Assembly (NCBI GenBank): GCA_044225505.1
Contig: JBGAIN010000002.1
Span: forward strand, 124,001 to 175,793
From: Limisphaerales bacterium
GTDB lineage: Bacteria; Verrucomicrobiota; Verrucomicrobiia; Limisphaerales; SIBE01
Length of the DNA: 51,793 bases
Reading direction: 5' to 3'
Both the position numbers and the translations under genes were made by a program. The notes beneath the pieces are model-generated. The model was not told the origin of the DNA. It was given only the letters and a program-made list of their open reading frames with translations, and did not search any database. Position 1 is the stretch's first letter. Each line of letters opens with the position of its first letter. Below are positions 11,092 through 34,121 of the stretch, piece after piece.

Positions 11092-11538
11092 TTGGCACAA
11101 GCATCTCATAGCGTTGAAGCAACGGATCAGCCTTTCGAAGACGCCGTCGTTGGGCAGGCCGTCCGCCAGGATTACCAGATCACTGACGGGGTCTACCGGC
11201 ATTTTCTGGATGCGTTTGACGATCGCAATCCCCTGCATGTGGAGGATGCGTTTGCCAGACACCGCGGCTTCGAGAGCAAGGTCATGCACGGGACAATCTT
11301 GAACGGATTCGTTTCGCATTTCATTGGCATGTGTTTTCCCGGGCGTCGGAGTCTTTTGCATTCGGTGGCGATGGAATACAAATCCCCCTGTTACCTCGGT
11401 GACATGCTCACGCTCGAAGCGAACGTCACGCAGAAGGTGGAAGCGTTGCGCATCATTCTCCTGACAATCGTCATTCGGAATGTCACACAAAGCCGCACCG
11501 CGGCCAAAGCCAAAGTGCAAGTGGGTTTCACGGGATGA
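11092..11538 (+). CDS. MaoC/PhaJ-like (R)-specific hot-dog dehydratase
   Basis: Hydratase-2 motif DRNPLH...VMHG, plus FPG and PCYLGD. Confidence 0.88.
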   Translation: MAQASHSVEATDQPFEDAVVGQAVRQDYQITDGVYRHFLDAFDDRNPLHVEDAFARHRGFESKVMHGTILNGFVSHFIGMCFPGRRSLLHSVAMEYKSPCYLGDMLTLEANVTQKVEALRIILLTIVIRNVTQSRTAAKAKVQVGFTG

Positions 11539-14041: not shown

Positions 14042-14280
14042 CCCGAACTGAAATTCATCGACAGCTCACGGATATCTTCCGGGACGTGTTTGACAATCCC
14101 AGCTTGGAAATCACCGATGGGACCACGGCCAAAGATATCGAAGAATGGGATTCACTCAGTCATGTGAACCTGATCGTCGCGGCCGAGAAGGCCTTTAAAA
14201 TGTCGTTTACGACCAAAGAGGTCAAAGCCTTGAGCAACGTGGGCGACTTTATCAGCCTGGTGGAGAGTCGCCGCAAATAA
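14038..14280 (+). CDS. Acyl carrier protein
   Basis: 80 aa from ATG 14038 (ATGA overlap); IFRDVFD and the WDSLSH phosphopantetheine Ser motif. Confidence 0.93.
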   Translation: MTRTEIHRQLTDIFRDVFDNPSLEITDGTTAKDIEEWDSLSHVNLIVAAEKAFKMSFTTKEVKALSNVGDFISLVESRRK

Positions 14281-15732
14281 ATGTCGTTCTTCTCGCCTAA
14301 TTTCGGACCGTTCCTGATCCTTAGCCTGATCGTTTTCTACCTTGCGCCGTTAAGGTTTCGACCGTTGGTTCTGTTGGGCGCCTCCTTGGCCTTCTACGCC
14401 TGCAGCAGTCTGCCTCACTTGGGGATACTTCTTGGCATCTCCTTCCTGGTTTACCTGGCAGCCCTGCACATCGAGGGCATTCCTGCAGAGCAGCAAAAGT
14501 TCCGTTCGACAACGCTGACCCTTGCCATCCTTCTGCTGGTCCTGACGTTCTTCAAGAGCGCACCAAAGTTTATTGAGCAGGTCCCCGAAGCCTGGAACGG
14601 CGGCGCCGTCGACCTCACCGCGCTCCTTCTCGCGCCTTTAGGATTGTCCTACTACCTTTTCAAGCTGCTCGGATATCTGTTGGATGTTTACTGGGAAAAG
14701 CTGCCGGCACAACGTAACTTCGCTTCCCTGCTCCTCTACGCTTCGTTTTTCCCGCAAATCGTGAGTGGCCCTATTCAGCGGGCGGGATCATTTCTGTCGC
14801 AACAAGGGACGCTGCCGGGCGCAAGCGCGGCTGATTTCGTGGTTGGACTGCGACGAATCCTGTTTGGCGTCTTTAAGAAGGTCGTGATTGCGGACGAACT
14901 GGGGATCGTGGTCGATAGGGTTTTCGCCACGCCCGCATCCTACTCGTCCTTGGAACTGCTCGCGGCCAGTTATTGTTTCGCGTTTCAGCTCTACGCGGAT
15001 TTCTCGGGATTGACCGATATCGCACTGGGCATCGGAAAGCTGTTTGGGATCCATGGGCCGGAGAACTTTGATTTGCCTTACCTGGCACGCAACATACCGG
15101 AATTCTGGCGACGCTGGCACATGTCGTTAACCTCTTGGTTGCAGGATTACCTCTTCCTGCCGCTGCGGATGTCGCTCCGCCATTTCGGCAACGTCGGTTT
15201 AGGAACGGCGATTTTCGTCAACATGTTGGCAGTGGGGCTCTGGCACAGCCCGACTTGGACCTTCGCAGCGTTCGGAAGCCTGAATGGCGTCTACCTGGTT
15301 GTCTCGGCGTTCACGCTGAAACGCCGCAACGCCTTCTTTCAAAAGCATCCGCGGCTTCGCGCGGCACGGACCGTGGCGGGGCCGGTTTTGACGTTTCACC
15401 TGATGGTGTTCGCGTTCATCTTCGCTCGGGCGAGCAGTCTGACGGCCGCCGTAACCTACGTCCACCAACTCTTCTTCGGGTTTCTGGGACCGATTCCCGT
15501 CCTGCGGATGCACTGGGCCATTCCTGGGTTGACGCGCAACTCCCTTCTCCTTGCGGTCGCCAGCCTGGTCGCGTTGGAGACGATCGATGCGTTGGTCCGC
15601 ACCCAACGTCTTACGCTTTGGCCCATCGCGAGCCTTCCTCGGACGCTTCGCTGGGCGCTTTATTACGGCATCCTCGCGCTCATCTTGTTCGAGTCCCACG
15701 CGACCAAGGGGTTTATTTATGCGAATTTCTAG
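14281..15732 (+). CDS. MBOAT O-acyltransferase (AlgI/DltB family) with C-terminal acyl-shuttle motif
   Basis: PLGLSYY, FFPQIVSGPI, QLYADFSG, FWRRWHMSL, GLWH catalytic His; ends in FIYANF. Confidence 0.95.
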   Translation: MSFFSPNFGPFLILSLIVFYLAPLRFRPLVLLGASLAFYACSSLPHLGILLGISFLVYLAALHIEGIPAEQQKFRSTTLTLAILLLVLTFFKSAPKFIEQVPEAWNGGAVDLTALLLAPLGLSYYLFKLLGYLLDVYWEKLPAQRNFASLLLYASFFPQIVSGPIQRAGSFLSQQGTLPGASAADFVVGLRRILFGVFKKVVIADELGIVVDRVFATPASYSSLELLAASYCFAFQLYADFSGLTDIALGIGKLFGIHGPENFDLPYLARNIPEFWRRWHMSLTSWLQDYLFLPLRMSLRHFGNVGLGTAIFVNMLAVGLWHSPTWTFAAFGSLNGVYLVVSAFTLKRRNAFFQKHPRLRAARTVAGPVLTFHLMVFAFIFARASSLTAAVTYVHQLFFGFLGPIPVLRMHWAIPGLTRNSLLLAVASLVALETIDALVRTQRLTLWPIASLPRTLRWALYYGILALILFESHATKGFIYANF

Positions 15733-16837
15733 CCTGGACGACCCGCGACGTTCCACGGCTCGGTTTCTGGGACAGCTGATCCTATTCTGCCTGCCAGTCG
15801 CGTGCGCCTGGCTGCTGCTGGAATGGTTCGCCGCTGGAATTCCGAACTCGTATTCCATTAAGCGGGACCAGTTACGCCAACACGCGAGCGAGGTCGACAC
15901 GTTAATCCTCGGCCCATCCAACGGTTACTTCGGGATCGATCCGAAGGAACTCCCAGGCTCGGCGTATAATCTCGCCAACGTCGCGCAAAGCCTTTACTAC
16001 GATGATCAACTCTTACTGAAAGTTCTTCCTTCGCTGCCCAAGCTCCGACGCGTCATTGTCACGCTCCACTACGTCTCCCTGTTCACCGATTTTCACGAAG
16101 TGGAGCGCGAGTATTGGTATCAGCAAGAATGGCGAATCCCCCCGCCCCATCCCCACGAGCGACTGGACGTCCGCATGTTCAGCCCCGTCGCGTTGCGGTC
16201 GCTCGAGTCGGTTGTCGCCGAATTATTCGCCGGCTATAAACGTTTCAAGCACGGTCAACCCTTCAATCGACGAGACGATCCCCAAATCGACGAACGCGGG
16301 TTCTATCTTCCGGAAGGCTGGGGTCCAAACTATCCTCGCCCGGATTTAAGCGAAAACGAAGGGCAGCGCAACGCCCAGATCCATCATCGCTTGATGCGAC
16401 TCCGAACGGAACAGCCCAATCTGAGTTCCCTCGAGCATCTTTTGGGAACCCTTCAAGCCCATAGGATCGAAGCGATTTTGGTCCTCCCGCCGGTTTGGCG
16501 CACCTATGCGGACGCGATGAAACCAGTCTATCGGGACCGGCTCTTTGCTGAGTTGGATCGACTCAAGCAAGCGTATCATGCGGAGGTATTTTCATTCCTG
16601 ACCGCGCCGGAGTTTGGTCCGGAAGATTTTATCGATGTCCAGCACTTGAATCCCAGCGGGGCCGCGCACTTCACCAAGGTGCTGAGCCGAGCGTTGGCCG
16701 ATTCGAAGCGGCAAAGTCCGCCAGGATCGTTCTCGAGCTTGTCGCCCAATCCTTCGGCGCTTCCTGATTCCGTCAAACCCCGGGAATACACTGCGGCTCA
16801 GTCGCTTGGGTCGGCCCCCGCAGCGAAAGGCCGTTGA
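15719..16837 (+). CDS. DltD/AlgJ-like membrane-anchored SGNH-fold acyltransferase
   Basis: ATG 15719 overlaps the MBOAT end; one N-terminal TM helix, LILGPSNG (G-x-S), AYNLA and FIDVQHLN (DxxH). Confidence 0.75.
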   Translation: MRISSLDDPRRSTARFLGQLILFCLPVACAWLLLEWFAAGIPNSYSIKRDQLRQHASEVDTLILGPSNGYFGIDPKELPGSAYNLANVAQSLYYDDQLLLKVLPSLPKLRRVIVTLHYVSLFTDFHEVEREYWYQQEWRIPPPHPHERLDVRMFSPVALRSLESVVAELFAGYKRFKHGQPFNRRDDPQIDERGFYLPEGWGPNYPRPDLSENEGQRNAQIHHRLMRLRTEQPNLSSLEHLLGTLQAHRIEAILVLPPVWRTYADAMKPVYRDRLFAELDRLKQAYHAEVFSFLTAPEFGPEDFIDVQHLNPSGAAHFTKVLSRALADSKRQSPPGSFSSLSPNPSALPDSVKPREYTAAQSLGSAPAAKGR

Positions 16838-18941: not shown

Positions 18942-19919
18942 CTACGCGGCGCGCAATCGCTGCAAGGCCACTTGAATAGGCCGCTCCGCATTCAGATTTA
19001 GCTCCAGCCGCAAATACCCACCATCCTTGAGCAGATCGATGCCCGACAAGGCCGGGCAAAGCCGCACGTTGAACCCGCGCCAGTGACGCGCGTCGTGGAG
19101 CGCCATGCTCATGCGCCGGACGGAGTTTCCCAAGAAGTGAATCGCGGGCATGCCCGAGAGCAAGCGGCTCTTCCACAAAAAGAGGGAGGAATGTAAATGC
19201 CCGATAATCGTTAATTCGACTTGAGCCAATCGGGGTCGCAGCGCTTCCTCGCGCCACAGAAATGGCAAAGCGGTGGGATCATGACAAAACAGAATGACTC
19301 GACGATCGGAGGACAGAGCCTCGAAAGAGTCCTGAATTGAGCGCAGATGATGGAGACGAAGCTGCTGCCATTGCTCCCTCTCCGATGGAAGCGTCTCCGG
19401 TTCGTAGACCGGCAATGCCAACAACGACGAGGTAACGCCAATCAACCGGTAGCGCCCGATATCCCAAGTCCAAAACGGCTCAACCCCGAGGGTTGGCGTT
19501 AGTCGTGACCAACTTTGGATGCGCAATCCGCCTTGGTTCCCGAACAGACTCATTTTGCCCAATTCGTGGTCGCCCACGACGCAACGGAGGTGGCCTTGGT
19601 AACGCTCGCGAAGCTTGCCGAGGCAAAGACGAGCACTTTCAAGACAAGCATTATCGCCAAGGCCAACGAATGCGGAATCGCACGAGTAGTCTCCATTCGC
19701 GACCACGTAGTCCGCATCGCCAGCTTGCGCAATGAACTGGTCCAACAGGAGATTGTTGTCGAATGGATGCCGGCGCCAAACGTAATTCCGGTAAATCTTA
19801 ACCAGCAACCGGAGCAGAGGGTTGCGAATAATCTCGAATTCTGGAGAACCGCGCTTCTGTTCTGTAGGCCCAGCGTAATGGATGTCACTAACAACGAGAA
19901 TGGATTGCGTCGTCCGCAC
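18942..19919 (-). CDS. Metallophosphoesterase (calcineurin-like)
   Basis: SDIHY, NGDYS, GDHE, CHDP and GHLH. Confidence 0.85.
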   Translation of the reverse strand: MRTTQSILVVSDIHYAGPTEQKRGSPEFEIIRNPLLRLLVKIYRNYVWRRHPFDNNLLLDQFIAQAGDADYVVANGDYSCDSAFVGLGDNACLESARLCLGKLRERYQGHLRCVVGDHELGKMSLFGNQGGLRIQSWSRLTPTLGVEPFWTWDIGRYRLIGVTSSLLALPVYEPETLPSEREQWQQLRLHHLRSIQDSFEALSSDRRVILFCHDPTALPFLWREEALRPRLAQVELTIIGHLHSSLFLWKSRLLSGMPAIHFLGNSVRRMSMALHDARHWRGFNVRLCPALSGIDLLKDGGYLRLELNLNAERPIQVALQRLRAA

Positions 19920-20046
19920 GCGGTTCGGCTAGCCGCCGCGGCAAGAATGGCCAGGGGCAGCCGCAAGCCCAAACGACCGGGAGACTCGCCCCCTCGCAAG
20001 ATGCGACGGAAAAGGCCCGTTGGAAACAACCCTGAGCATCACTCGC

Positions 20047-21198
20047 TTAGCGTGTCATGATTTTCTCGGAAGCACCCAAGGGGAAGAGCGCACGAAATGT
20101 GGACCCTTCGTTAACGCGACTTTCCACACTCAGCTTGCCGCGATGCTCCATGATGATGCGCCGGGTGATCGCCAAGCCCAGCCCGGTCCCTTGGGGTTTA
20201 GTACTGAAAAACGGCTCGAACAAGCGGCTCAAATTTTCGGGTGGAATCCCGCTTCCGGTGTCCGTGACGGAAACTTGCAACCATTTTACGCGAGCGCCGC
20301 CTTCGACCTCCGTAAGCTCCGTGGAAACGCTGAGCTGCCCCTTCGGACTCATCGCCGCCAGGGCGTTCAAGAAAATGTTCAGGAACGCCTGCTCGAGCTG
20401 GTAATCATCGCCTTCGATGCGATCTGGACGAGCCGTGAATGAACGGCGCAACCGGATTTCTTTGGTTTCCAATTGAGGCTGAATCAAGCGCAGGGAATGA
20501 TCCAGAATCCGATGCACACTCACGGGCGCAAAGGTGGGTTTCGCCGGGCCGGAAAACTTAAGCATCTGACTCACGATGGAATCGACTCGCCGCATTTCCC
20601 GACTGACCAAGCTGGCTAGTTCGGAGTCTTTATTCCGCTGAATCAAGTCCTCGACAAAGGTCGTGATGGCGACCAGGGCGTTCTTGATCTCGTGCGCCAT
20701 ACTGGCCGACAACGTTCCGATACTCGCCAAGCGGTCCAGGCGTTGCATGTTGAACGACAACTCGTGGATCGCTGTAAGATCGTTGATAATAAAAATCGCC
20801 GTCTCGACCTCTCCGTTTGCGTTGAGGGCAAGCGATGAGCTAACTCGACAAGCGAAATCCGTCCCTTCGCGGTCTCGCAGCACTAAGCCTCGTTGCGCTG
20901 AGCTCTTTTTCTCGGCGAGAATCTGCTGGAGCGTATCCTTAAGCGGAAGCGGCAGCGATTGATAAGGACTTCCCAGAACGGTGGAAGGCTCGATGCCAGT
21001 CAAGCGTTGAGCGTGCGGATCGAACACGACCACCAAGCCTGCGGCATTGGTGGCAATGACACCGTAGGAGACCGACTCGCGAAGAAGCTCAGCTCCGCCC
21101 GCAGCATCGGTCTCCTGGGATGATCCAACCTGGTTCATTGCTTTTTCGCACCCATCTGATGCCCCGATCTCGGGGTCCACCCTCTCCCCTTCACGCAA
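20047..21198 (-). CDS. Cytoplasmic PAS-domain sensor histidine kinase
   Basis: PAS-like N-terminus, AHEIKNAL, NIFLNA, DTGSG and GTGLGL. Start may be ATG 21138. Confidence 0.92.
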   Translation of the reverse strand: MREGERVDPEIGASDGCEKAMNQVGSSQETDAAGGAELLRESVSYGVIATNAAGLVVVFDPHAQRLTGIEPSTVLGSPYQSLPLPLKDTLQQILAEKKSSAQRGLVLRDREGTDFACRVSSSLALNANGEVETAIFIINDLTAIHELSFNMQRLDRLASIGTLSASMAHEIKNALVAITTFVEDLIQRNKDSELASLVSREMRRVDSIVSQMLKFSGPAKPTFAPVSVHRILDHSLRLIQPQLETKEIRLRRSFTARPDRIEGDDYQLEQAFLNIFLNALAAMSPKGQLSVSTELTEVEGGARVKWLQVSVTDTGSGIPPENLSRLFEPFFSTKPQGTGLGLAITRRIIMEHRGKLSVESRVNEGSTFRALFPLGASEKIMTR

Positions 21199-21430: not shown

Positions 21431-22315
21431 GTGAGGACCTGCTTGGAGCGTGTGACGATTGAGTCGCTAAGTGAACGCTTGGCGGGCACATTGTTTTGTC
21501 CAAGCACGAATGAAAGGTTGCCAGCGGTGCTCATTTGCCATGGCGCGGGCGACTTCAAAGAAAATTACTTCGAGTTAGCCGAGTTTCTGAGCGACCGTGG
21601 CATTGCCAGCCTGGCGCTAGACATGCATGGCCACGGCGAAAGCGGTGGCGAGCGCTTCCACGTGGGAATGCACGAATGGATCGCAGATGTCCGTGCTGGC
21701 ATCGGCTTTCTTGCTACTCACGATCGTATTGACGGTCAACGGCTGGGTGCATTTGGATTGTCGTCGGGCGGCACCGCGATTCTGGAGGCGGCACTGGTAG
21801 AACCTCGGTTGCGTGCGTTGGTCGCCCTGGACGCAACGGTACGCACTTCGATGCCGTTTAGTTTTCTAGTCTTCTTGAAGATACTGTTGCTGATCGGGAA
21901 AATGAAAAAGCAGTTCACTCAATTGGATCTACGCGTGCCCTTGGCAAGAATGATGGGGGGAATACGACTGGTCTCGGATCCTCACGTCGAAAACCGCTTG
22001 CGCTCGGACCCCAAGACTCTGCAGGCTTTCATGGCATTTCCTTTTCCAGGAGCAGCAGATTCGTTTTTTGTTAATACCATTGAGCGCGTCGGCAAGGTGA
22101 CCGCTCCGACGTTGGTGCTTTGGGGAGCAGAAGACGAACTAGACCCTCCAGAGACTGGCCGACTCTTGTATGAAGCTCTGAGTTGCCATAAGAAGCTGCG
22201 TATTGTCCCTGGAAACGGACATCTCGGTCACTTAGACCGCAACAAACAAGAGGTTTTCACGTCGACTTCCGATTGGATTCTCGAACACCTTCAATCGGAA
22301 GGAGCCTCCCGATGA
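21431..22315 (+). CDS. Alpha/beta-fold hydrolase (esterase/lysophospholipase-like)
   Basis: ICHGAG, DMHGHGES, GLSSGG nucleophile elbow, GAEDEL and GNGH. Confidence 0.9.
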   Translation: MRTCLERVTIESLSERLAGTLFCPSTNERLPAVLICHGAGDFKENYFELAEFLSDRGIASLALDMHGHGESGGERFHVGMHEWIADVRAGIGFLATHDRIDGQRLGAFGLSSGGTAILEAALVEPRLRALVALDATVRTSMPFSFLVFLKILLLIGKMKKQFTQLDLRVPLARMMGGIRLVSDPHVENRLRSDPKTLQAFMAFPFPGAADSFFVNTIERVGKVTAPTLVLWGAEDELDPPETGRLLYEALSCHKKLRIVPGNGHLGHLDRNKQEVFTSTSDWILEHLQSEGASR

Positions 22316-23463
22316 CTAGGGACAAGTACATTACTGGGGAAGCGGCGAAGGGTTTGAGCAGCGAGGAAAAGTGGCAATTGCTCTCTCCGTTCCTCAAGAA
22401 TTACGGGACCCAATCCCTTGCTTACGCCACGCTGCAACAGGGAATGGAATACTTTATCCACGAGACAGGCTACATCGCTTACAACTCAGTGGTTCATCCC
22501 GTGTTAGCGCGCAAACCCCGACGCGTTTCGCTTTCCGATCCGATATGCGCCCCGGAAGATTATCAGAGAATTATTAAGGCCTTCCTCGCGGCCGATCCTT
22601 ACGCATCGTTTGGCGTGATCTCCGAGCCGTGCGCAGAAGTGTTACGTGGAATTGGCTTCAAGGTGAATTGTCTGGGGTATGAACCCGAGATCCACATCCC
22701 CACCTACAACACCCAAGGAAATTGGAAGGAACTCGACCTCATCAAGCGAGCTCGCAATGAAGCTAAGAGAGAGGGGATTCTCATTCGAGAGGAGCCGATT
22801 GAGCGGCTCAGCAAGCCAGAACTTAACGAAATCTCCTCGCGATGGATTCAGAACAAGAAAGTCAACGACCGAGAAATTTGGATCTACGCACGCCGTCCCG
22901 TTTTTGAAACCGAACCGGATGTCCGCAAGTTCGTCGCTTTTGACAAAACCGGCTGCATTGCCGGATTTGCATTTTACGATCCAATGTACCGAGACGGCAA
23001 AGTTTTTGGCTATTCTTCCAATATCTCGAGATGCGACGAAGAGCGTTTTGGAAAACTTTCAACCGCCATCCACATGTGCGCGATTGAGCAGTTTCGGTCG
23101 GAAGGGAAGCAGGTCCTCAATCTGCTGCTTGCCCCTTTCAGTAAATTGGAAATCGGCAAATACAACGACGATTTGGGCGTCAAACTCTTCTTCCGAATTA
23201 GCGAAAGATTCGGCAACAACATTTATAACTTCAAGGGCCTTTCGTTCCATAAGTCGAAATACCGAGGTATCGAAAGGCCGCTGTATTTTGCCTCCAACAG
23301 GCTACTGCCAACCAACGACATTTACCTCGCGTTCCGGGCTGCCGATATCACCCGGAACTATTTCGCCGTCCTAGCCAAGCTCTTTGTCGGTTTCTGCTCC
23401 GCCGTATTCTCGAAAAACGACCGGGAAACCAAGCAAACGCGTCCAGTGCCTTCAAATCCATGA
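22312..23463 (+). CDS. Stand-alone DUF2156 (MprF/LPG synthase C-terminal) aminoacyl-tRNA-dependent transferase
   Basis: SDPICA, RARNEAKREG, LNLLLAPF and YNFKGLSFHKSKY resemble the MprF synthase domain; no flippase TM region; ATGA overlap at 22312. Confidence 0.8.
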   Translation: MTRDKYITGEAAKGLSSEEKWQLLSPFLKNYGTQSLAYATLQQGMEYFIHETGYIAYNSVVHPVLARKPRRVSLSDPICAPEDYQRIIKAFLAADPYASFGVISEPCAEVLRGIGFKVNCLGYEPEIHIPTYNTQGNWKELDLIKRARNEAKREGILIREEPIERLSKPELNEISSRWIQNKKVNDREIWIYARRPVFETEPDVRKFVAFDKTGCIAGFAFYDPMYRDGKVFGYSSNISRCDEERFGKLSTAIHMCAIEQFRSEGKQVLNLLLAPFSKLEIGKYNDDLGVKLFFRISERFGNNIYNFKGLSFHKSKYRGIERPLYFASNRLLPTNDIYLAFRAADITRNYFAVLAKLFVGFCSAVFSKNDRETKQTRPVPSNP

Positions 23464-24911
23464 ACCCCCCCATTTGGCGTGATCGACCTGAAAAGCGTCG
23501 ATTCGGGATGTTACTCGCATCCATTCTATCCCTCTTGCCTTCGGTTATCTGCCACGGCCAGTCGGAATCCACGGCAACTGCGTCCTCTTCTCCTGGCTGG
23601 AGTGAACGTGTAAAGCAGTTGCTAATGAGAGACTACATGCTCGGCGACTGGGGAGGTGTGCGCTCCGACCTATCACGTCGTGGTGTTGATTTTGAGTTCT
23701 ACTACGCCGGGATCGTTCCTTCAAACACCTCAGGAGGGCTCAAGCATGGCTCCGTTTACGAGGGGATTCTGATGCTCACACTCGACCTCGACTCGGAGAA
23801 ACTCGTCGGCTACGAAGGAGGGCATTTTCATGCGGGGTCGCTATGGCTCCACAGCGGCCCAAGCTTTTCTAAAAACTATGTTGGAGACTTAAACGTCGTC
23901 AGTCTCCTGGATTTCAACGACAGTTTTCGGCTCTGGGAACTTTGGTACCAGCAGCAATTCTTTGATCACAGAATATCTCTCAAATTTGGGCAGATGGCGA
24001 TCGATCGAGATTTTATTTTGCCAGAGCTTTACGGCACTCTCGGAACGATCAGTTTCCTCAATCAAACTTTCTTCTACCCGACGCTGGCATTCAACGTCTA
24101 CGATGTCCCGGGCTTTCCGACGGGCTACCATGCGCTCGGTTCGACTCCCTACGGAACTCCAGGCGTCTTACTGCGATGGGATCCTAACCCGCACTTCTAT
24201 ACCCAGGCAGCTGTTTACGACGGAAATCCAGACAGGAGTTACTCTGGCACCCGAGTCAACTTGAACAATCAAGAAGGCGCGTTAGCCTATGCCGAAGCTG
24301 GGTATCGTTTGCATCCAGGCCCGAAGGCCCAGGGTTTGCCCGGCGTCTACAAAGTCGGCGCCTTTTTCCATACGGATGACTTCGCGGACGCGGGCGACAG
24401 CACAACCGAACTGATCGGCCAAGCGATCGGACTCCCGCCATCCCGTCCCAGGAATCATTCGGGCAATTACGGTGTTTACGCCCTCGCCGAACAAATGGTC
24501 TACCGCGAACCGGGCGATCCAGAAGCTCCACGCCAGGGACTCGTCTCTTTTCTTCGTGCAGCCGCAGCGCCCGGGGACCGGAACTTGACAGAGCTTGAGC
24601 TTGCCGGAGGCTTGGTCTACACTGGCCTGATTCCAACGCGCGAGTACGACACGTTGGGGATTGCCGCTTCCTATTTGCGCGCCAGCACGAAAATCCGTGA
24701 CGCTGTCCGCGAAGCCAATGACACGTACGGAATCGGCTTGCCTCTCCCTGATTCAGAAACCGTTCTCGAAGTGAGCTACAAAGCTCAACTGGCCGCTTGG
24801 TGGACGCTGCAACCGAGCTTACAATGGGTAATTCATCCGGGTGCCCGGCTTTCCGGTGCTGCAATTCCCGATGCTTTGGTGTTCTCGATCCTGACCACGC
24901 TTCGCCTCTAA
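23460..24911 (+). CDS. OprB-family carbohydrate-selective porin
   Basis: MLGDWGGVRSDL, FRLWELWYQQ, LKFGQ, ETVLEVSY and LQPSLQWVIHPG. Confidence 0.9.
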   Translation: MNPPIWRDRPEKRRFGMLLASILSLLPSVICHGQSESTATASSSPGWSERVKQLLMRDYMLGDWGGVRSDLSRRGVDFEFYYAGIVPSNTSGGLKHGSVYEGILMLTLDLDSEKLVGYEGGHFHAGSLWLHSGPSFSKNYVGDLNVVSLLDFNDSFRLWELWYQQQFFDHRISLKFGQMAIDRDFILPELYGTLGTISFLNQTFFYPTLAFNVYDVPGFPTGYHALGSTPYGTPGVLLRWDPNPHFYTQAAVYDGNPDRSYSGTRVNLNNQEGALAYAEAGYRLHPGPKAQGLPGVYKVGAFFHTDDFADAGDSTTELIGQAIGLPPSRPRNHSGNYGVYALAEQMVYREPGDPEAPRQGLVSFLRAAAAPGDRNLTELELAGGLVYTGLIPTREYDTLGIAASYLRASTKIRDAVREANDTYGIGLPLPDSETVLEVSYKAQLAAWWTLQPSLQWVIHPGARLSGAAIPDALVFSILTTLRL

Positions 24912-25031: not shown

Positions 25032-26441
25032 ATGGACCATCTGACCAGTCAAGCCTGTAACGCTTCGTTTTCGATCTGCAACGGTGTCTCCCTGACCGCT
25101 CAGGTGGTGAAGCTCGGCCCATTGGCAGTCACCCTTGAAATCTTTCACCCCGAACTGGTCATTCAGAGCTCAGAAGTCCTCAACGAATTTGAGATCGTTC
25201 TCGCCGAACGCTCCATCTACAAAGGACGCGGCGTGTGTCTCGGTGTCGTGAATGTTGGTGCCCAGTGGACGTGCGAAGTCGAATTGGAGCATCCCGGGAT
25301 TCCCCCCGATGCTTTCGGCACCTCTCGGCTCGAAGACCAAATCAATGGGTTCATGGGGGTGTGGCATGATTCTTACCGAATCCTCCCTGAATACAAGATC
25401 GCCGTCGCGGATCTGCGAACATTCCTGGATGATCTCCGCCTGTGGATGGAGCAAGTAGAGCTCACGATTCGTTCGATGCCGGCCGGCGATCGTTTCCAGC
25501 GAGAACAAGAAACACTCGAAAAAATCGGACGGCCAATCCTCCCGGTGATTGATAGATTCTTCGAAACTTTCGAGTCCCTTGTGCCAAAAATCGACCCTGA
25601 GCGGCGTCCGTACTATCAGGCCTATCTTAAGCGACATCTCCATCCCTTGGTCTTGTGCTCTCCTTTTGCCTATCGGACATTCGCCAAGCCAATGGGATAT
25701 GCAGGAGATTATGAAATGGTGAACATGATCACACGCAATCCCTTTGAGGGTAGCAGCATGTTCGCAAAGCTCGTCAATTGCTGGTTCTTGGAACAGCCGC
25801 CAGCCGCTGCCCACCGCAATCGATTGCTTCATTTGAAAAGCGTTATCCTAAACGAGACCGCTCGGGTTAAAGCCTTGGGACGTGCTGCTCGCGTCTTGAA
25901 TGTGGCTTGCGGCCCCGCGGTTGAGATTCTGCGTTTCATGACGGAACACGCGGCAGCTGATCATTGTCATTTCGATCTCTTGGATTTCAACGAAGAAACT
26001 CTCTCGCAAGCTCGTAAGGCAATGGAGGAATGCCGGCGGCGCTACAGCCGTTTGACGACGTTCCACTTTATTAATCAGCCGGTCCATCAACTCATCAAAC
26101 AGTCTTCCAAGACCGTGGAACGGCCCGTCGAGAAGCAGTACGATCTCATCTACTGCGCTGGGCTTTTCGATTACCTGACAGATCCAGTCTGTCAAAGATT
26201 GACCTCGTTGCTTTACAGCTGGCTGACACCCGGTGGGTTGCTGACCCTAACCAATGTCCACCCTTCAAATCCGCTTCGCTACGGAATGGAGCATCTGTTG
26301 GACTGGCACCTCGTCTATCGAGACAAGACTCGGTTCTCCAATCTGAAGCCGATGCAGGTTAAAGCTGATGAAGTCCACGTCAGCTCAGAGATGACCGGGG
26401 TGAACCTCTTCTTCGACGTTCGACGCAATGGCTCTGTTTGA
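25032..26441 (+). CDS. Class I SAM-dependent methyltransferase, PhcB-like (3-OH fatty acid methyl ester signal synthase)
   Basis: KPMGYAGDYEMVN, AHRNR, VLNVACGPA, LLDFNEET and YDLIYCAGLFDYL; overlaps a downstream sensor kinase. The PhcB assignment is from recalled family motifs and synteny. Confidence 0.75.
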   Translation: MDHLTSQACNASFSICNGVSLTAQVVKLGPLAVTLEIFHPELVIQSSEVLNEFEIVLAERSIYKGRGVCLGVVNVGAQWTCEVELEHPGIPPDAFGTSRLEDQINGFMGVWHDSYRILPEYKIAVADLRTFLDDLRLWMEQVELTIRSMPAGDRFQREQETLEKIGRPILPVIDRFFETFESLVPKIDPERRPYYQAYLKRHLHPLVLCSPFAYRTFAKPMGYAGDYEMVNMITRNPFEGSSMFAKLVNCWFLEQPPAAAHRNRLLHLKSVILNETARVKALGRAARVLNVACGPAVEILRFMTEHAAADHCHFDLLDFNEETLSQARKAMEECRRRYSRLTTFHFINQPVHQLIKQSSKTVERPVEKQYDLIYCAGLFDYLTDPVCQRLTSLLYSWLTPGGLLTLTNVHPSNPLRYGMEHLLDWHLVYRDKTRFSNLKPMQVKADEVHVSSEMTGVNLFFDVRRNGSV

Positions 26442-29133
26442 ACAGCCGCTTCCGGACGATGCCGCGTTCCGAACGGCATGGTTCGCCCACGAGCAGCAAG
26501 AGCGGATCAATACCGGAAAGATCGCTGCTGCGTTGGTGGTTTTCTTAATGCCGGCCGGAGTGATCCTTGAGCTCTGCTACGGCCCGACCCATACGCATTT
26601 TGGATCCTTCCTACTTTCGCGTCTCCTCTGCTCTGGGTTGGCCGCTGGCATCTGGTTCTTGCTCAATACGGAGTTTGGACAACGGCACTATCGATATCTG
26701 GGCCTGCCGATTGCTTGGCTACCAGCTGCGTTCATTTGCTGGATGATCTATGTAACTGAAGGGGCCAAATCACCATACTATGCAGGGCTCAACTTGATCC
26801 TTCTGGCGGTAAGCGCGGTTGTGCATTGGAGCACTCGCGAATCCATTTTTGCCGTTGTCGGGGTCATGGGAATGTACGGTCTAAGCTGCTTCGGTGCGCG
26901 AGAAAGAGATGGTGAAATGGGCGGTTGGAGCTTTATTCTAAACCTCTATTTTATCACCCTGACCGGGATCATTGTTGTTGTTGGCAATTCCGTATTTAAC
27001 CGGCTCCGCTTGCGAGAATTCGGCCTTCGCTACCAGCTTGACCAGAACCGCCAGAAGTTGGAGGAAAGTCATGAAAAGCTCGTCGAGTTAGATCGGGTGA
27101 AGAGCCGGTTCTTCGCCAATATCAGTCATGAATTACGCACGCCGCTCACCCTTCTCTTAGCTCCGCTGGAGAGTCTGATTCACCGCGCCGGACGGTCCAT
27201 CAACGATCCGGGACACGAACTTCTGCTAACCATGCGCTCCAACGGCATGCGACTGCTGAAACTGATCAACGACCTGCTCGACTTAGTCAGGCTTGAATCC
27301 GGGCGCATGGAACTTCGCATGGAACCCCTCGAAATCAGCGAGTTCCTCAAAGGCCTGGCCAGCTCCGCTCGACAAGTAGCCAATGACAAGCGAATCCAGT
27401 TGGAGACAACCGTTGACCCTGCTCTCGGCACGGTCGCCGTTGATCGCGACAAGATGGAGAAGATCATCCTGAACCTGGTGTTCAACGCACTGAAGTTCAC
27501 CCCGGCCGGCGGAAGAGTCTCAGTCCGCGCCGAAAAGGAAGCCGAAGAAATGATCTTGACTGTCAGCGATACAGGCATGGGGATCGCCGAAAAGAACCTG
27601 CCGTTCATCTTCGACAGATTCTGGCAAGCTGACACATCTTCAAAACGGAAATATCAAGGTGTCGGGATTGGCCTGGCCCTCGTGAAGGAATTGGTGGAAT
27701 TGCATGGAGGCCAAGTCGCGGTGACCAGCGAAGAGGGAAAAGGCACGACGTTTACACTACGAATGCCTTACCGGCGCGCGGATGTGATAACGCCCTCTCC
27801 CGCGCAGCACCAGCCAGAGCCGCAAGCGGCAGAGTCTCCGGACACATCAGGCCAAGTCCGATCAGAAGAGTGGCTGGTCAATTTGTACCGACGCGCCGAA
27901 CTGTTTCCCGCGCTTACACCGGTGCAGGAGAGCTTGCGCCCGGTGGAAACGTGGAGTAACAGCAAGCGGCCGAGATTGCTCATCGCGGACGACGAGCCCG
28001 ACATGCTGCGCTTTCTGAAATCGCAGCTTGGGACCGAGTATCAGGTATTGGAAGCCGTCGATGGCCAGCAAGCCATTGAGAAAGCCTGCCAGTTTCTGCC
28101 GGATATGATCCTGCTGGACATGATGATGCCGGAGAAGGATGGGCTGCAGGCTTGTCAGGAATTGCGGGAGCGAACTCCCACTCAAAGTATCCCGATCGTG
28201 CTGCTCACCGCCCGTGCCGATGAAGAAACAAAACTGGCGGCGCTAAAAGCCGGGGCCAGTGATTTTCTGGCCAAACCATTTTCCACAACGGAATTGCATG
28301 TCCGAATCAAGAATCTCGTCGAAATGCACGAATACCAGCGCAAGCTCACCAAACAAAACCAAGTCCTGGAACGGACGATCGAACAGTTGAAAGACACGGA
28401 AAGTCAGCTAGTGGAAAGCGAAAAGATGCGATCGTTAGGCCAACTGAGCGCCGGCCTGATTCACGAGATCAACAATCCGCTTAATTTCGCCACGACCGGG
28501 CTCTATGCCTTGCGGGGTAAAGAACAGCATTTCTCGGAAACGGAACGTCCGGAGTACCTCGAAATCCTCGCGGACGTGGAAGACGGAGTGAAGCGAGTCA
28601 AGGATCTCGTCTCAAAGATGCGCGAATATTCGTATGCGGATAATAAGCATCTGGAAGAGGTCGAGGTGTCGCAAGTCGTGAATTCAGCATTGCGTTTCCT
28701 GAGCCATGAATGGAAGGATAAGGTGGATATCAAGCAGGACCTGGCCCCAGGCCAACGCATCTGCGCGAACAAAAACCGGATGACCCAGGTGCTGCTGAAT
28801 TTGTTGCAGAACTCGGTGGACGCCCTGAGCCATAAGGCGTTTGACAACGAAAAACCGAGCATCTGGATTATCGGTCGGGTCGATGCGGAGCGGAGTATGT
28901 TGACCATTCGCGATAACGGAACTGGAATCGATCCGGAGCATATGGACAAAATTTTCGATCCGTTTTTTACGACCAAGGATGTGGGGCAAGGAATGGGGTT
29001 GGGCCTGAGCATCTGCTATCGTATTGTTCAAGACTCGGGAGGTCGTATTCACGTCAAAAGCGAAGTCGGAAAGTTTTGCGAGTTCCGCCTCGAATTCCCG
29101 GTGAAGAACCCTGTGACGGCTGCGGCCGCTTGA
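26428..29133 (+). CDS. Hybrid membrane sensor kinase (TM, HisKA, HATPase, REC, HisKA, HATPase), PhcS-like
   Basis: Multi-TM sensor with SPYYAGLNL; SHELRTPL, receiver IADDE...LLDMMMP, second H-box IHEINNPL, and both G-box sets intact. Confidence 0.9.
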   Translation: MALFEQPLPDDAAFRTAWFAHEQQERINTGKIAAALVVFLMPAGVILELCYGPTHTHFGSFLLSRLLCSGLAAGIWFLLNTEFGQRHYRYLGLPIAWLPAAFICWMIYVTEGAKSPYYAGLNLILLAVSAVVHWSTRESIFAVVGVMGMYGLSCFGARERDGEMGGWSFILNLYFITLTGIIVVVGNSVFNRLRLREFGLRYQLDQNRQKLEESHEKLVELDRVKSRFFANISHELRTPLTLLLAPLESLIHRAGRSINDPGHELLLTMRSNGMRLLKLINDLLDLVRLESGRMELRMEPLEISEFLKGLASSARQVANDKRIQLETTVDPALGTVAVDRDKMEKIILNLVFNALKFTPAGGRVSVRAEKEAEEMILTVSDTGMGIAEKNLPFIFDRFWQADTSSKRKYQGVGIGLALVKELVELHGGQVAVTSEEGKGTTFTLRMPYRRADVITPSPAQHQPEPQAAESPDTSGQVRSEEWLVNLYRRAELFPALTPVQESLRPVETWSNSKRPRLLIADDEPDMLRFLKSQLGTEYQVLEAVDGQQAIEKACQFLPDMILLDMMMPEKDGLQACQELRERTPTQSIPIVLLTARADEETKLAALKAGASDFLAKPFSTTELHVRIKNLVEMHEYQRKLTKQNQVLERTIEQLKDTESQLVESEKMRSLGQLSAGLIHEINNPLNFATTGLYALRGKEQHFSETERPEYLEILADVEDGVKRVKDLVSKMREYSYADNKHLEEVEVSQVVNSALRFLSHEWKDKVDIKQDLAPGQRICANKNRMTQVLLNLLQNSVDALSHKAFDNEKPSIWIIGRVDAERSMLTIRDNGTGIDPEHMDKIFDPFFTTKDVGQGMGLGLSICYRIVQDSGGRIHVKSEVGKFCEFRLEFPVKNPVTAAAA

Positions 29134-29143
29134 AAGGAACTGT

Positions 29144-30406
29144 ATGCAAGATCTGCTGGACTACAAGAAATTCGCCGTCCTTTACGTCGACGACGAAGAA
29201 AAGTCGTTAAAGCTATTTGCGCGGGCCTTTTCAGGTTCCTTTCGCATCCTAACCGCTCCGAACGCCCAGGAAGGCCTCAAAATTCTTCAAGAACACCGCC
29301 ACGACATCGGCGTCCTGATGTCGGACGAACGCATGCCCGGAGAAAAAGGGGTCTGGTTGCTCGATCACGCCCGACAGCTGGAACCTCGGATTGTCCGAAT
29401 TCTGGCTACGGCCTACGCGGATATGGATGCCGCGATTGCCGCCGTGAACGCCGGAGCGATCTACCGTTACATCACCAAACCCTGGGATCCAGTGCAACTT
29501 GAACAAACGCTCAAGCGAAGCCTGGAGTTCTTCGTGGTACAGCGCGAACGCGATCAACTGCTTACAGAAAAGATGTCGATCTTGCACAATTTGATGATTG
29601 CGGATCGGATCGTTAGCCTTGGACTCTTGGCGGCTGGCTTGAGCCACCACATCCGAAACGCGCTAGTAGCCGTAAAAACGTTCCTGGACTTAGCTCCAGC
29701 CAAAATGCAGGAAGAAAAGAAAGAGCCGGACAAGCTTCGAAATCCCGAGTTTTGGAGAGACTATTACCGGAATGTCCAGGGGCAGATTGAGAAGATCAAT
29801 CACTTGCTCAAGGAATTGGGATCTGCTTCCGAGGATCCATCGTTTCAGTTCAATGACACCGTGAATGTGCGCGAGATTGTCAATGAGGTCATTTCCAGTT
29901 TGGCGGAACCATTTTCACAGGCAGGCATTCGCGTAGAAAACAACATCCCAGACTCTCTCCCACCGCTCAAAGTCGACAAAGCTAGGTTTTCCCGGTTGTT
30001 CGAACTGCTGCTCCGCGATGAGCTGGCGAGTTTGGCCAAAGGAAATACCGTGACGTTTTCCGGAACTGTTCCCCGGCAGAACGGAGATGAGGCATCCGAA
30101 GTTACCATTCAGATCCACGATACCGGCCCTGGACTCCCGAAAGACGCGCTCCGTTTGTTGTTCGACCCCTTCGTTGTCCGTTCGGAGAGCCCGATGGAAT
30201 ACGGGATCAATCTCATGGCGTGCTATTTCATCGTACACTATCACGGCGGAAAAATCCTCGCGGAGAGCGAGCAAGGCCAAGGGACAACCTTTACTCTGCG
30301 CCTGCGCACCAACCCGATGGTCGCACCGCCCACCCAAGAGAGTCCCGAGTTCCTGCAACGCGCGCTGCTGAACCAGACCCTCTGGCAGAAGCTGGCCGCC
30401 TCTTAG
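29144..30406 (+). CDS. Receiver plus degenerate histidine kinase (PhcR/PhcQ-like)
   Basis: YVDDE, MSDERMP and KPW receiver; SHHIRNAL H-box; N-box Asn absent (ELLLRDEL); G2 box replaced by EYGINL. Confidence 0.85.
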   Translation: MQDLLDYKKFAVLYVDDEEKSLKLFARAFSGSFRILTAPNAQEGLKILQEHRHDIGVLMSDERMPGEKGVWLLDHARQLEPRIVRILATAYADMDAAIAAVNAGAIYRYITKPWDPVQLEQTLKRSLEFFVVQRERDQLLTEKMSILHNLMIADRIVSLGLLAAGLSHHIRNALVAVKTFLDLAPAKMQEEKKEPDKLRNPEFWRDYYRNVQGQIEKINHLLKELGSASEDPSFQFNDTVNVREIVNEVISSLAEPFSQAGIRVENNIPDSLPPLKVDKARFSRLFELLLRDELASLAKGNTVTFSGTVPRQNGDEASEVTIQIHDTGPGLPKDALRLLFDPFVVRSESPMEYGINLMACYFIVHYHGGKILAESEQGQGTTFTLRLRTNPMVAPPTQESPEFLQRALLNQTLWQKLAAS

Positions 30407-30586: not shown

Positions 30587-32602
30587 ATGAAAACAATTCT
30601 GGTTTTAGCGCAACACCCGGGATTGCCCGACGGGGTGAGAACCGCGCTTAATCCGGCGGAGTACCGAGTCATTCATCGGTTAGGAGTTACGGAAGCTGAA
30701 CCCCTCTTGCATCAGCGACTTGTCGATTTGTGTCTTGTCGACGTGGAAGGCGCGGAAATCCAGGCCACCTGGGCTGTTGAGAAACTGCGGCGACGCCTGC
30801 CAGCCTGCCCGATCTTCGCCTACACGAGTTCACCAAAGCCAGACTGGGAAGAAGAGGCATACCTTGCCGGCGTCCAGCATGTTCTGACCAAACCCGTTCG
30901 GCCCAGGCTGCTTATGTCGCTCTTGGAGCGGCTCTGGGCGCCAGCCCCCCGCACCTCGCCGACCGGAGCCGCCCGCCCGCAGTTCCGTGAGACGCAATCT
31001 GACCCGGAATTTAATCATCGCGAGTTCCAAGCTCTGGGGGTCCTCCGGAACTTGTCGGCAATTTTGACCCATTCACTCTGTGCCGAGGGCCTGCTAAAAC
31101 AGTTCTTACTTCTCTTACGTGAAATCGTCGGTGTCAACCGAGTCTTAATTTTCCTCAGACGCCCTTCTGCTTCCTTTGGCGGAGTAAGTGGCGAAGAAGG
31201 CCGCTGCCTCCGAGCTGCGTGTGCGATCGGTCTGTCCTCCGGGCTATTGGAACATTTCGAGTTAACGACTGATTCAGGCATCGGAGCTCACCTGTTTCGT
31301 CAGGGGCGGGTTCTGCGACGAAACAGCGATACGGCTCAAAGTGATGTCGAAATTCAGAAGGAATTTGAGGTCATGGGGACCGAGGTTGCGGTGCCGATTC
31401 TCGATCGGGAGACGTTCATGGGGGTCGCCGCCTTGGACGGTCGAGTCACGGGAGAACCTCTGACAAATTCGGAGTTGGAGTTGATTTTCCACCTATTGGA
31501 AGAAGTTGGTTTGGCCGTCAAGAATATCTGGCTACACAATCAACTCTCCTCCAACCATGAAATGATGACGGACATTTTCCGTCAATTGAGCAGCGCTTGC
31601 ATCGTCGTCAGCCGAGACTTGGCGATCCTGCACGCCAACAAAGCGGCCAAAGCGTTTCTGGCCCGTCCGGGGAGATCTCAAGGTGATTTTGAGTTTAGCG
31701 ACCTACCCCAGGTTCTTGGAGCCAAGGTGTATCAAGTGCTTCAGACAGGCACTGCCATCACGACCTTCAAATACCAGCCGCCCGACAGCCCGAATTCCCT
31801 TTTCCACATCACAATTCTGCCGTTTCAAAAGCAGGATTCGGCTCTGCCCAGTTCGGCTCTTTTGGTCGCAGAGGATCACACGCGCTCGGACCAGCTGCAG
31901 AGGCTGGAAATTGAGACCTCTAACTTGCGACTGGTCCGGACTATGGCCGACCGGCTCGCTCACGAAATCGGGAATGCCCTGGTGCCCATTTCGACGCATC
32001 AGCAACTTCTGGCCCACAGTTATCAAGATCCGGATTTTCGGGCGTCGCTCAACGCCGCGCTGTCCGACGGCGTGAAGCGCATCTCACGCTTGACCAGCCA
32101 AATGCGGTTTCTAGCTCGAGATAGCATTGTGGCCAAGGAAGCGTTTCCGCTGGAACAACTTTTGGAGGAAGCGTACGAGGAAGCGAAGAAGCATCAACCG
32201 GTTCGCACCTCGCGCATGACTTACGAGAATGGGACAGAGCCAGTCATTCTTGCGGGAGATCGTTCCGCCCTCAAACACGCGCTCACGGAAGTTCTGATCA
32301 ACGCCCTGCAGGCCAACCCTGCGGACGCCAAAATCGGCGTGCGAACGCGCTCCAACGGCAATGGCGGCGGAGAGAGCGATGTCAGCATTGAAGTCCAAGA
32401 CAATGGCCCGGGATTTGCCGCCGATTTGGTTCAGCGTGCTTCGGAACCGTTCTTCACGACGAGGAACGTTGGTCTGGGACTTGGGTTGACAGTAAGCCGA
32501 AAGATCATCGAGACTCATCAAGGGCATCTTGATGTTGGAAACTCTCCTGAGAACCACTCGGGACTTGTGCGTATCTCACTGCCGTCGTCGACTCGGCAGT
32601 AG
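30587..32602 (+). CDS. Atypical receiver, GAF, PAS histidine kinase
   Basis: Receiver lacking the acidic pair (LVLAQH), GAF-like AVPIL...GVAAL, AHEIGNAL, DNGPG and GLGLGL. Confidence 0.85.
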   Translation: MKTILVLAQHPGLPDGVRTALNPAEYRVIHRLGVTEAEPLLHQRLVDLCLVDVEGAEIQATWAVEKLRRRLPACPIFAYTSSPKPDWEEEAYLAGVQHVLTKPVRPRLLMSLLERLWAPAPRTSPTGAARPQFRETQSDPEFNHREFQALGVLRNLSAILTHSLCAEGLLKQFLLLLREIVGVNRVLIFLRRPSASFGGVSGEEGRCLRAACAIGLSSGLLEHFELTTDSGIGAHLFRQGRVLRRNSDTAQSDVEIQKEFEVMGTEVAVPILDRETFMGVAALDGRVTGEPLTNSELELIFHLLEEVGLAVKNIWLHNQLSSNHEMMTDIFRQLSSACIVVSRDLAILHANKAAKAFLARPGRSQGDFEFSDLPQVLGAKVYQVLQTGTAITTFKYQPPDSPNSLFHITILPFQKQDSALPSSALLVAEDHTRSDQLQRLEIETSNLRLVRTMADRLAHEIGNALVPISTHQQLLAHSYQDPDFRASLNAALSDGVKRISRLTSQMRFLARDSIVAKEAFPLEQLLEEAYEEAKKHQPVRTSRMTYENGTEPVILAGDRSALKHALTEVLINALQANPADAKIGVRTRSNGNGGGESDVSIEVQDNGPGFAADLVQRASEPFFTTRNVGLGLGLTVSRKIIETHQGHLDVGNSPENHSGLVRISLPSSTRQ

Positions 32603-32837
32603 CACATTACGACTGAGACCTGGCCTAGCTTCGAGGCCAGGTGAAATATCCTTGTGAGGGTCAGGGTTTTAGCCTAAACTTCCCACTTTGAGTGCGCCAT
32701 GCAAGGCGCAGCTTGTTGGTGAGGCCACGTCTTTCATTTCAGCTGGACGTCCGGACCGGTTCCAGTGGACCGGTGGAGATGCTTGCTTATTCTCAGTTTC
32801 CGTCAGCGGATCAGGAGCGCCCGATCGTGTAATCGTT

Positions 32838-34121
32838 ATGACCCTGAACACGCCCCAAAACGCAAGCCTGGACGGAGCCCTACAGCCCCTGTCGCAGCCG
32901 GCAAAACAAACTCTGTTAATTGTCGATGATGAAGAAGGTCCTCGGCAATCCATTCGCATTGTTTTCAAAGAGGACTACCAGATCTTGATGGCCGATAACG
33001 GTCCAGCCGCGATTGCCCTTGCGAAGCAGCACTCCATTGACGCCGCCGTGTTGGATATTCGCATGGCAGGAATGTCCGGAATCGAAGTTCTAAATGCCCT
33101 CAAAAGCATCGATCCCACCACGGAAGTGGTCATGTTGACAGCATACGAAACATTGGAAACAGCGCGTCAGGCACTGCGCCTCGGAGCGTGTGACTATCTC
33201 AACAAACCGTTTGATATTGCCACTCTGAGGGAAGCGGTCCGGAATGCCATGGAACGCCGGTGTATTTCCCAGCAAATCCGAACCAATAACCTGCGTCTTC
33301 GAGAGTTGCAGGTGGAGATTCAGAATCAAAAAGTCCGTGAAGAACTCGCGCGGACGCGCGGCGAGATCTACGCCAGCATCATTCATGATATCAACGGACC
33401 ACTGACAATTATCTCGGGCTTTATTGAAGTCATCAACCAGCGTATCGGTGACGCCACTCACCTGGAAGGCGACAAGCTCGATATTATCAAAGATCGACTC
33501 ACACGCATTACCAAGCAGGTCACGAGCTGCATCCAAATCTCAAACCGCTATCTGAGTTTCCTGCGAGGCTGCGCCGAAGAAAGCACGCCGGTCAGCGTCA
33601 ACCAAATCCTCAACGATCTGGGAGAACTGCTTCGCACCCACACGAGTTTGCAGAAGAATAGCCTGGTCATCCGCTCCCTGCCGGAAGATATGTCCGCGCA
33701 GATCAATGGTACAGACCTGATCCAAATCCTGCTCAATCTCGCCATCAACGCCTTCCAAAGCTCCGATCAAGCCCATCAAGTCGAGATTCGCAGTGAGAAA
33801 GTGGAAACGGCGTTGGACCTGACGCGCCTTCAAGACGGTCCCCAGGACGTCTTTGTCAATCGAGAGCAGTTTGTCAACGCGTCACCGTTGCTCGCATTCA
33901 CAGTTGCGGACAGCGGTCCTGGAGTTCCGCCGGACGTATTATCTCGCATATTCGATCCGTACTTCACAACGAAACCCGTCGGCCAAGGTACCGGACTGGG
34001 GTTATCGATCGTGAAACGTCTCGTGGAACAAGCCGGTGGCGCAATCCACCTTCATACCGAAGTGGGCCGGGGCACGAGCTTCACGATCTACTTGCCCTGC
34101 CAGCCCGCGTCGTCTTCTTGA
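32838..34121 (+). CDS. Receiver-histidine kinase hybrid
   Basis: LIVDDE, VLDIRM, KPF, IHDINGPL, NLAINA, DSGPG and GTGLGL. ATG 32838 is preferred over the longer ORF start. Confidence 0.9.
   Translation: MTLNTPQNASLDGALQPLSQPAKQTLLIVDDEEGPRQSIRIVFKEDYQILMADNGPAAIALAKQHSIDAAVLDIRMAGMSGIEVLNALKSIDPTTEVVMLTAYETLETARQALRLGACDYLNKPFDIATLREAVRNAMERRCISQQIRTNNLRLRELQVEIQNQKVREELARTRGEIYASIIHDINGPLTIISGFIEVINQRIGDATHLEGDKLDIIKDRLTRITKQVTSCIQISNRYLSFLRGCAEESTPVSVNQILNDLGELLRTHTSLQKNSLVIRSLPEDMSAQINGTDLIQILLNLAINAFQSSDQAHQVEIRSEKVETALDLTRLQDGPQDVFVNREQFVNASPLLAFTVADSGPGVPPDVLSRIFDPYFTTKPVGQGTGLGLSIVKRLVEQAGGAIHLHTEVGRGTSFTIYLPCQPASSS

Follow-up and report, generated by a model that had tools for sequence, protein, structure and literature searches.

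A PhcB-family methyltransferase and a PhcS-like sensor kinase in a gene cassette common across the order Limisphaerales

The locus and its distribution

Three adjacent genes on the forward strand form a compact cassette in the window, a 51,793-nucleotide stretch of the genome of a Limisphaerales bacterium (9.0 Mb, 342 contigs, 95% complete). The first gene (25032..26441) encodes a PhcB-family SAM methyltransferase, the presumed signal synthase; with the ATG at 25032 as start it has 469 aa, in a frame open from 24993. It overlaps by 14 bp with the second (26428..29133), which encodes a long-form PhcS-like sensor of 901 aa, and the third (gene 3; 29144..30406; 420 aa) starts 10 bp past the sensor stop codon. 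Pfam places a class I SAM domain at residues ~285-410 of the methyltransferase, the series HisKA, HATPase_c, Response_reg, HisKA, HATPase_c in the sensor, and Response_reg, a weak HisKA and HATPase_c in gene 3. An earlier note on this DNA had described a methyltransferase, a sensor kinase and a receiver-kinase in this order and with this overlap and spacing, and the open reading frames and Pfam matches bear it out. Its inventory of three reading frames stands, but it overlooked that the sensor contains a receiver and a second kinase, that the catalytic boxes of gene 3 are degenerate and that two receiver-kinase genes follow downstream. The latter are optional members by Pfam, a receiver-GAF-kinase hybrid (30587..32602) and a receiver-kinase hybrid (32688..34121, likely start 32844), both on the forward strand. 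Upstream, on the same strand, lie three accessory genes, encoding an alpha/beta hydrolase with a GxSxG serine (21431..22315; Pfam Hydrolase_4), a stand-alone LPG_synthase_C domain protein (22273..23463; PF09924) and an OprB-family porin (23460..24911; PF04966). Prediction of promoters and terminators gave no signal, with 4 promoter and 17 terminator sites where shuffled sequences had 6.8 and 16.1.

The cassette is common across its order and is no stray. Enzyme matches (E<=1e-10) occur in 93 of 151 genomes of the order, two of them distant catalytic-domain matches only, and in 65 of the 110 of good quality; gene 3 matches in 91 of 151 and 65 of 110, respectively, and both are nearly always present once. 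An even sample of the phylum yielded eight matching genomes in 301, including the source genome and one distant match. Forty regions, picked for long contigs and spread and not at random, were fetched for comparison. One of these (L144), with a distant enzyme only and no sensor, was set apart, which leaves 39 loci. The sensor gene directly follows the enzyme gene in all 39, and the same order is found in 35/35 short loci with a near full-length match, a set that overlaps the 39. Such recurrence argues that the adjacency is not due to chance. Gene 3 is complete in 36 of the fetched loci; 10 loci have the receiver-GAF-kinase and 16 have another receiver-kinase. No sensor was seen without its enzyme in complete loci. 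Four genomes have gene 3 without an enzyme match; two of these end at a contig edge inside the sensor gene and two have no sensor nearby.

The hydrolase, LPG_synthase_C and porin genes are a real but optional accessory, because, of the eight genomes (among 151 in the order) that have the LPG gene, seven carry it within about 3.5 kb of the methyltransferase, and because the gene is seen again in another order (L139). The hydrolase recurs beside the cassette in L119, L128, L133 and L165, and the porin accompanies the LPG gene in these four loci and in L139. The hydrolase is a candidate signal esterase or acyl-release enzyme.

The methyltransferase and its N-terminal barrel

The phcBSRQ operon of R. 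chuxiongensis (L109) served as reference, standing in for R. solanacearum. Ralstonia, Cupriavidus, Paraburkholderia and Oxalobacteraceae loci were among the matches listed in a scan of named genomes, of which the best 80 rows all lay near the Paraburkholderia query and did not include R. solanacearum. The reference operon was checked by the landmarks PhcB R22, PhcS H230 and PhcQ R154, which are named in PMC6989110 and PMC11960443, and its gene lengths agree to within a few residues with those in PMC8578825.

Relatedness of the methyltransferase to PhcB, on which the earlier note had staked its proposal beforehand, was found over the full length (37.5% identity over 456 aa, E 5e-109), and the 469-aa protein is the only match to Ralstonia PhcB in the source genome, reciprocally so. 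In a quick tree, which has long branches and a midpoint root and so gives no donor or order of events, it groups with PhcB and away from a PilZ-intact clade (support 89). Among the matches listed, 43 of 120 homologues carry the JGI name for PhcB, and five of 120 close homologues have Verrucomicrobia or Limisphaerales names, in agreement with the note's placement of the host as a probable verrucomicrobium. The PhcB family at large comprises 1615 clusters at E<=1e-30, and named members of this wider family include Verrucomicrobium, Hyphomicrobium and one planctomycete MAG; in the Verrucomicrobium spinosum homologue (WP_009961516.1) the enzyme is fused to a receiver.

The predicted structure (pLDDT 90.4) consists of a barrel, a helical insert and the methyltransferase domain. 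PhcB itself has no solved structure; the closest solved folds of the last domain are generic methyltransferases (3ocj, Z 19.7), and a sequence search of the PDB gave a single weak match (E 0.4). Around the active site, KPxGYAGDY, HxxR, CAGLFDY, TN and W are invariant or nearly so over 141 sequences, including Ralstonia and Cupriavidus PhcB. PhcB uses the cognate fatty acids to produce its signals, according to PMC7912708, citing Ujita 2019; at only ~37% identity, transfer of this substrate to the present enzyme is unsafe.

Two alternatives concern what the enzyme methylates. It might act on another small acid or a polyketide, so that the cassette would make a diffusible self-signal of other chemistry in an otherwise phc-like circuit. 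The catalytic parts diverge within the order (mean distance 0.84), distant homologues of the catalytic domain (H4, H5) sit within polyketide synthases, and in three of the 39 loci (L141-L143) a reducing type I polyketide synthase (KS-AT-DH-ER-KR-ACP) without a thioesterase lies 60-80 bp upstream of the enzyme gene. This neighbour points to an acyl substrate, and the near-invariance of the active-site residues, PhcB of both genera included, speaks against a different chemistry, which we consider quite unlikely. Alternatively, the enzyme might methylate a protein, for instance the sensor itself, in the fashion of CheR. Tight coupling of the two genes and weak CheR Pfam matches in some homologues could be taken that way, but these matches fall short of the cut-off and overlap with the generic SAM-binding fold, and the homologue of known activity works on fatty acids (PMC7912708); protein methylation thus appears highly improbable.

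Residues ~6-100 of the methyltransferase (25047..25331) are predicted to form a PilZ-fold barrel. When residues 1-105 were folded alone, the best 8 of 48,161 chains were PilZ domains (Z 9.0-10.8), among them MrkH (Z 10.8, rmsd 2.8, 97 aligned) and Alg44 (Z 9.9, rmsd 2.5, 87 aligned). In addition, a homologue (P0256) has a Pfam PilZ match over the corresponding region. Foldseek returned nothing for the N-domain at E<=0.001, although PilZ domains headed its list, and a PDB search with the N-domain profile gave four chance matches. Since sequence searches gave only such weak or chance matches, the assignment to PilZ is based on fold and on transitive Pfam evidence.

In PilZ domains, c-di-GMP is bound by the motifs RxxxR and D/NxSxxG. 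Neither is present in this barrel. The domain begins at its first strand, without the RxxxR loop, and the second motif is found in none of 52 aligned PhcB-type N-domains; of 130 more distantly related representatives, 10 carry it, one being probably a mis-registered fragment. The barrel shares its six strands with PilZ domains such as those of MrkH, Alg44, YcgR and PP4397, while the c-di-GMP motifs are missing both here and in Ralstonia PhcB and distant PhcB relatives such as P0235 retain both. Elsewhere in the source genome, GGDEF and PilZ domains are each matched a single time. The barrel of this methyltransferase is unlikely to be a c-di-GMP site. Residue R22 of Ralstonia PhcB maps to the second strand of the barrel, and the R22C substitution, described in PMC6989110 as lying outside known domains, reduces signal output. 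The barrel may thus be a regulatory docking site. For the known system this means that PhcB would carry a degenerate PilZ barrel holding R22, which is testable. The searched literature, which does not cover most subscription journals, contained no report of a PilZ fold in PhcB or of the present cassette.

The sensor and gene 3

The sensor consists of a membrane domain followed by kinase 1 (H234), a receiver (D564) and kinase 2 (H679). Hydropathy analysis revealed five clear membrane peaks between residues 27 and 191, and a sixth helix may lie near residues 115-133. Residues 1-190 of PhcS have a single match in the source genome, the 901-aa sensor (38% identity over 115 aa, E 4e-11), and this kinship of the membrane domains, fixed in advance as a point on which the proposal could fail, is what was found. 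The PhcS kinase finds its best match in kinase 2 (33%). The earlier note's view of a phcS-type membrane kinase thus holds for the membrane domain, while the plain single-kinase layout gives way to a membrane-kinase-receiver-kinase arrangement. Of 39 Verrucomicrobiota sensors, 80% or more have G44, R65, M106, S115, Y118, G120 and L123, as do 6/6 Burkholderiales PhcS. The source sensor lacks the D-x-x-Y pair kept by most relatives, having E48 and G52 in its place, which counts against the self-signalling reading set out below. No Pfam family covers the membrane domain, and the same is true of Ralstonia PhcS. A MASE8-like identity, drawn from ESM Atlas clusters, was rejected, as it is flagged there as probably the wrong family.

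Among the 39 loci, 31 have the long-form sensor (one broken, one frameshifted) and eight a short PhcS-like form. Both His, the Asp and the N and G boxes are retained in 31/31 long sensors.

Gene 3 consists of a receiver (D61), a signalling helix and a degenerate kinase core. Taken by the earlier note for PhcR, it proved nearer to PhcQ (36-43% identity, against 29% to PhcR), a likeness that lies in the receiver and signalling helix, where R155 aligns opposite PhcQ R154. Its C-terminus, on the other hand, has a 97% profile match to the PhcR kinase core and none to the PhcQ tail. That the PhcQ C-terminus is itself a decayed kinase core found no support in profile comparison (P 0.3). In a tree of the first 160 residues (42 rows, with 17 of the 37 gene-3 orthologues and without L119_RK5), PhcR and PhcQ form one clade (96/93) with gene 3 outside it; gene 3 falls within a larger group opposed to one outgroup family. 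This tree rules out one-to-one orthology with either PhcR or PhcQ, and gene 3 is best read, from these alignments, as a co-orthologue of both. It would follow for the known system, and can be tested, that PhcR and PhcQ arose as paralogues from a single receiver-kinase.

The receiver Asp is present in all 37 gene-3 orthologues and the H-box His in 35, and 36 have His or Tyr at the next position. Asp (in 30) or Glu (in seven) replaces the N-box Asn, and in the G2 box the middle Gly alone is left. The source gene retains H168 and has lost its N and G2 boxes. By established histidine kinase motifs, gene 3 is probably an inactive kinase core, i.e. a pseudokinase.

Output, related systems and a putative signalling circuit

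The query for the phc output regulator was a 347-aa LysR protein of the L109 genome, whose gene is about 16 kb away from phcB and which we take to be PhcA by its length, tail and position (length and tail after PMC8578825 and PMC13320629). Its best match in the 95% complete source genome has only 25% identity, and no orthologue was found with it. Across the order the same query matched 3 of 151 genomes at E<=1e-20, with 26-28% identity. The absence of PhcA from the window, as reported in the earlier note, thus extends to the genome. Beside the cassette, the fetched loci share no recurrent DNA-binding regulator, and the cassette itself has no DNA-binding output.

The closest known system is phcBSRQ-PhcA of the Ralstonia solanacearum complex, Cupriavidus and Paraburkholderia, which uses 3-OH PAME or 3-OH MAME. 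Searches of the literature, in which most subscription journals were not covered, found no description of phc signalling outside Ralstonia, Cupriavidus and Paraburkholderia. Gene order is the same in both, with a full-length PhcB-family enzyme, a PhcS-type membrane domain directly downstream, a PhcS-like kinase and a receiver of the PhcR/PhcQ family. In contrast to phcBSRQ, the sensor here has an additional kinase-receiver module (901 against 442 aa), one receiver-pseudokinase replaces PhcR plus PhcQ, further receiver-kinases are present, no PhcA orthologue was found and the hydrolase/LPG-synthase-C/porin trio is added. The cassette resembles phc in enzyme and sensor domain, and lies outside phcBSRQ-PhcA by its sensor layout, receiver genes and output.

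A second likeness is to LvrA-LvrB of pathogenic Leptospira, in which, as here, a kinase-receiver-kinase protein is followed by a receiver-kinase, without a DNA-binding domain (PMC5863495). LvrA is the top NCBIfam match of the sensor (residues 202-891), but the scores of the two proteins are far under the cut-offs (326.7 of 1200 and 60.1 of 500 bits). LvrA senses through a soluble PAS domain and is not reported to have a synthase gene, whereas the sensor here has a membrane domain; LvrB is there an active kinase, whereas gene 3 lacks N and G2 boxes.

On balance, we consider it probable that the cassette is a phc-type self-signalling circuit, in which a self-made fatty-acid methyl ester is read by a kinase cascade. 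By analogy with Ralstonia PhcB, the substrate of the methyltransferase would be a fatty acid or hydroxy fatty acid, whose carboxyl group would receive a methyl from SAM. The neutral ester would leave the cell, accumulate with cell density and bind the PhcS-type membrane domain. Kinase 1 (H234) would then set the phosphorylation state of the internal receiver (D564), which would switch kinase 2 (H679) in the manner of LvrB and other receiver-controlled kinases. Phosphate would presumably flow from kinase 2 to D61 of gene 3, the sites being intact. The gene-3 protein, which probably does not autophosphorylate, could act as a phosphorylation-switched binding partner or a His relay, filling the role that Burkholderiales divide between PhcR and PhcQ. 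The output would be other than PhcA and, in some genomes, would be passed to further receiver-kinases. In Leptospira, it was the first kinase of LvrA and not the second that phosphorylated LvrB in vitro (PMC5863495), so the order of the relay may differ here.

The same evidence has to be weighed for a cell-autonomous monitor of lipids, in which the methylated acyl metabolite would stay in the producer's membrane and the sensor would read fatty-acid flux or membrane state and not cell density. The homology of enzyme and sensor fits this equally, as do the single copy in most of the order, the constant company of sensor and enzyme in complete loci and the accessory hydrolase with its lipid-transferase-like neighbour; near-core retention would equally suit a housekeeping membrane sensor. 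Against it, the only characterised members produce a released signal, as far as the phc reports go, and the linked porin would suggest traffic across the outer membrane. Moreover, the mean distances of sensor and enzyme (1.06 and 0.84) exceed that of the kinases (0.69), and faster divergence is expected of signal dialects. We therefore regard such a monitor as unlikely.

For the methyl-ester circuit, co-variation was compared over 33 loci. With the kinases controlled, the membrane domain co-varies with the catalytic part of the enzyme at a partial r of 0.27 (22/2000 permutations), a weak association whose significance the permutation test overstates among kin. The membrane domain against its own kinase 2 gave 0.01, and kinase 2 against gene 3 gave 0.79. 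This pattern echoes an earlier finding that PhcB and PhcS divide by signal type and PhcR and PhcQ track lineage (PMC8578825).

If the circuit operates as proposed, a lineage common in the environment possesses such a signalling system, there may be ester signals that are new, and neighbours in soil may have a signal class in common with a crop pathogen. A wider picture, offered tentatively and with more doubt than confidence, is that fatty-acid methyl-ester signalling is how cells ordinarily communicate in a large order of Verrucomicrobiota that is mostly uncultured. The long sensor and single receiver-pseudokinase would be the older form, and the Ralstonia operon a derived one, shaped by loss of a kinase-receiver module, by a receiver duplication that gave PhcR and PhcQ, and by connection to PhcA. 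The synthase would descend from a c-di-GMP-gated PilZ enzyme whose barrel now serves as an allosteric or docking domain. Signal production in Ralstonia requires PhcQ (PMC6989110), and a surviving barrel of this kind would explain the drop in signal with R22C as well as a possible feedback of PhcQ on PhcB.

In the quick enzyme tree, short-form sensors are interspersed among long ones. Repeated loss of the kinase 1-receiver module would account for this pattern but is not proved by it. In L141-L143, gene 3 has undergone a separate duplication, and one of the copies is kinase-less.

Plasmid-borne, additional and incomplete phc cassettes

A conjugative plasmid of Paraburkholderia graminis, pPHS1_P, carries phcB, phcS and phcQ together with a truncated phcR (locus L001:9968-14343), and a phc cassette can therefore be mobile. 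Full-length phcB matches in named genomes (loci L050-L116, among the matches listed) came from many Janthinobacterium, Duganella and Pseudoduganella genomes and from one Methylotenera, and the phcBSRQ gene order is present in L050 and L088. None of these genera is mentioned as a phc host in the phc literature consulted.

Orthologues of the third cassette gene, which encodes a receiver and a degenerate kinase core, also occur with neither the methyltransferase nor the sensor nearby (L161:8793-9941 and L162:4851-6011). The cassette in L167 is a decaying copy, in which the long sensor (L167:1036-3053) has an internal deletion and the third gene is absent.

Among PhcB homologues, the P0208 cluster (Verrucomicrobium spinosum WP_009961516.1) has a fused N-terminal receiver domain, and P0235, P0265 and P0269 have one or two additional PilZ domains.

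Genes surrounding the cassette in the window

Upstream of the cassette lie a divergent PAS kinase and a metallophosphoesterase (18942-21198, reverse strand), found in this position in 10 and 8 of 40 loci, respectively, counting the window's own; their recurrence may be plain synteny. A hydrolase, a stand-alone LPG_synthase_C gene, which encodes a lone aminoacyl-transferase-type domain, and an OprB porin (21431-24911) form a trio that only a minority of the genomes have alongside their cassette; in L119 its orientation is reversed.

A short-chain dehydrogenase, an FkbH-like protein, an MBOAT acyltransferase and an uncharacterised 428-aa gene (11535-16837) likely form an envelope acylation cluster. 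The window also holds a sigma-54 response regulator with its own kinase (7366-10251, reverse strand) and a PAS-GAF kinase (49896-51725, forward strand).

Polyketide synthases beside the methyltransferase

In three genomes from a taxonomic order other than the window's, a thioesterase-less reducing type I polyketide synthase of about 2090 aa lies immediately upstream of the PhcB homologue (L141:8281-15888, reverse strand; L142:1549-7824 and L143:1531-7791, both forward). Pfam domains of the synthase were computed for L142 and L143. Three receiver genes follow the sensor in all three loci.
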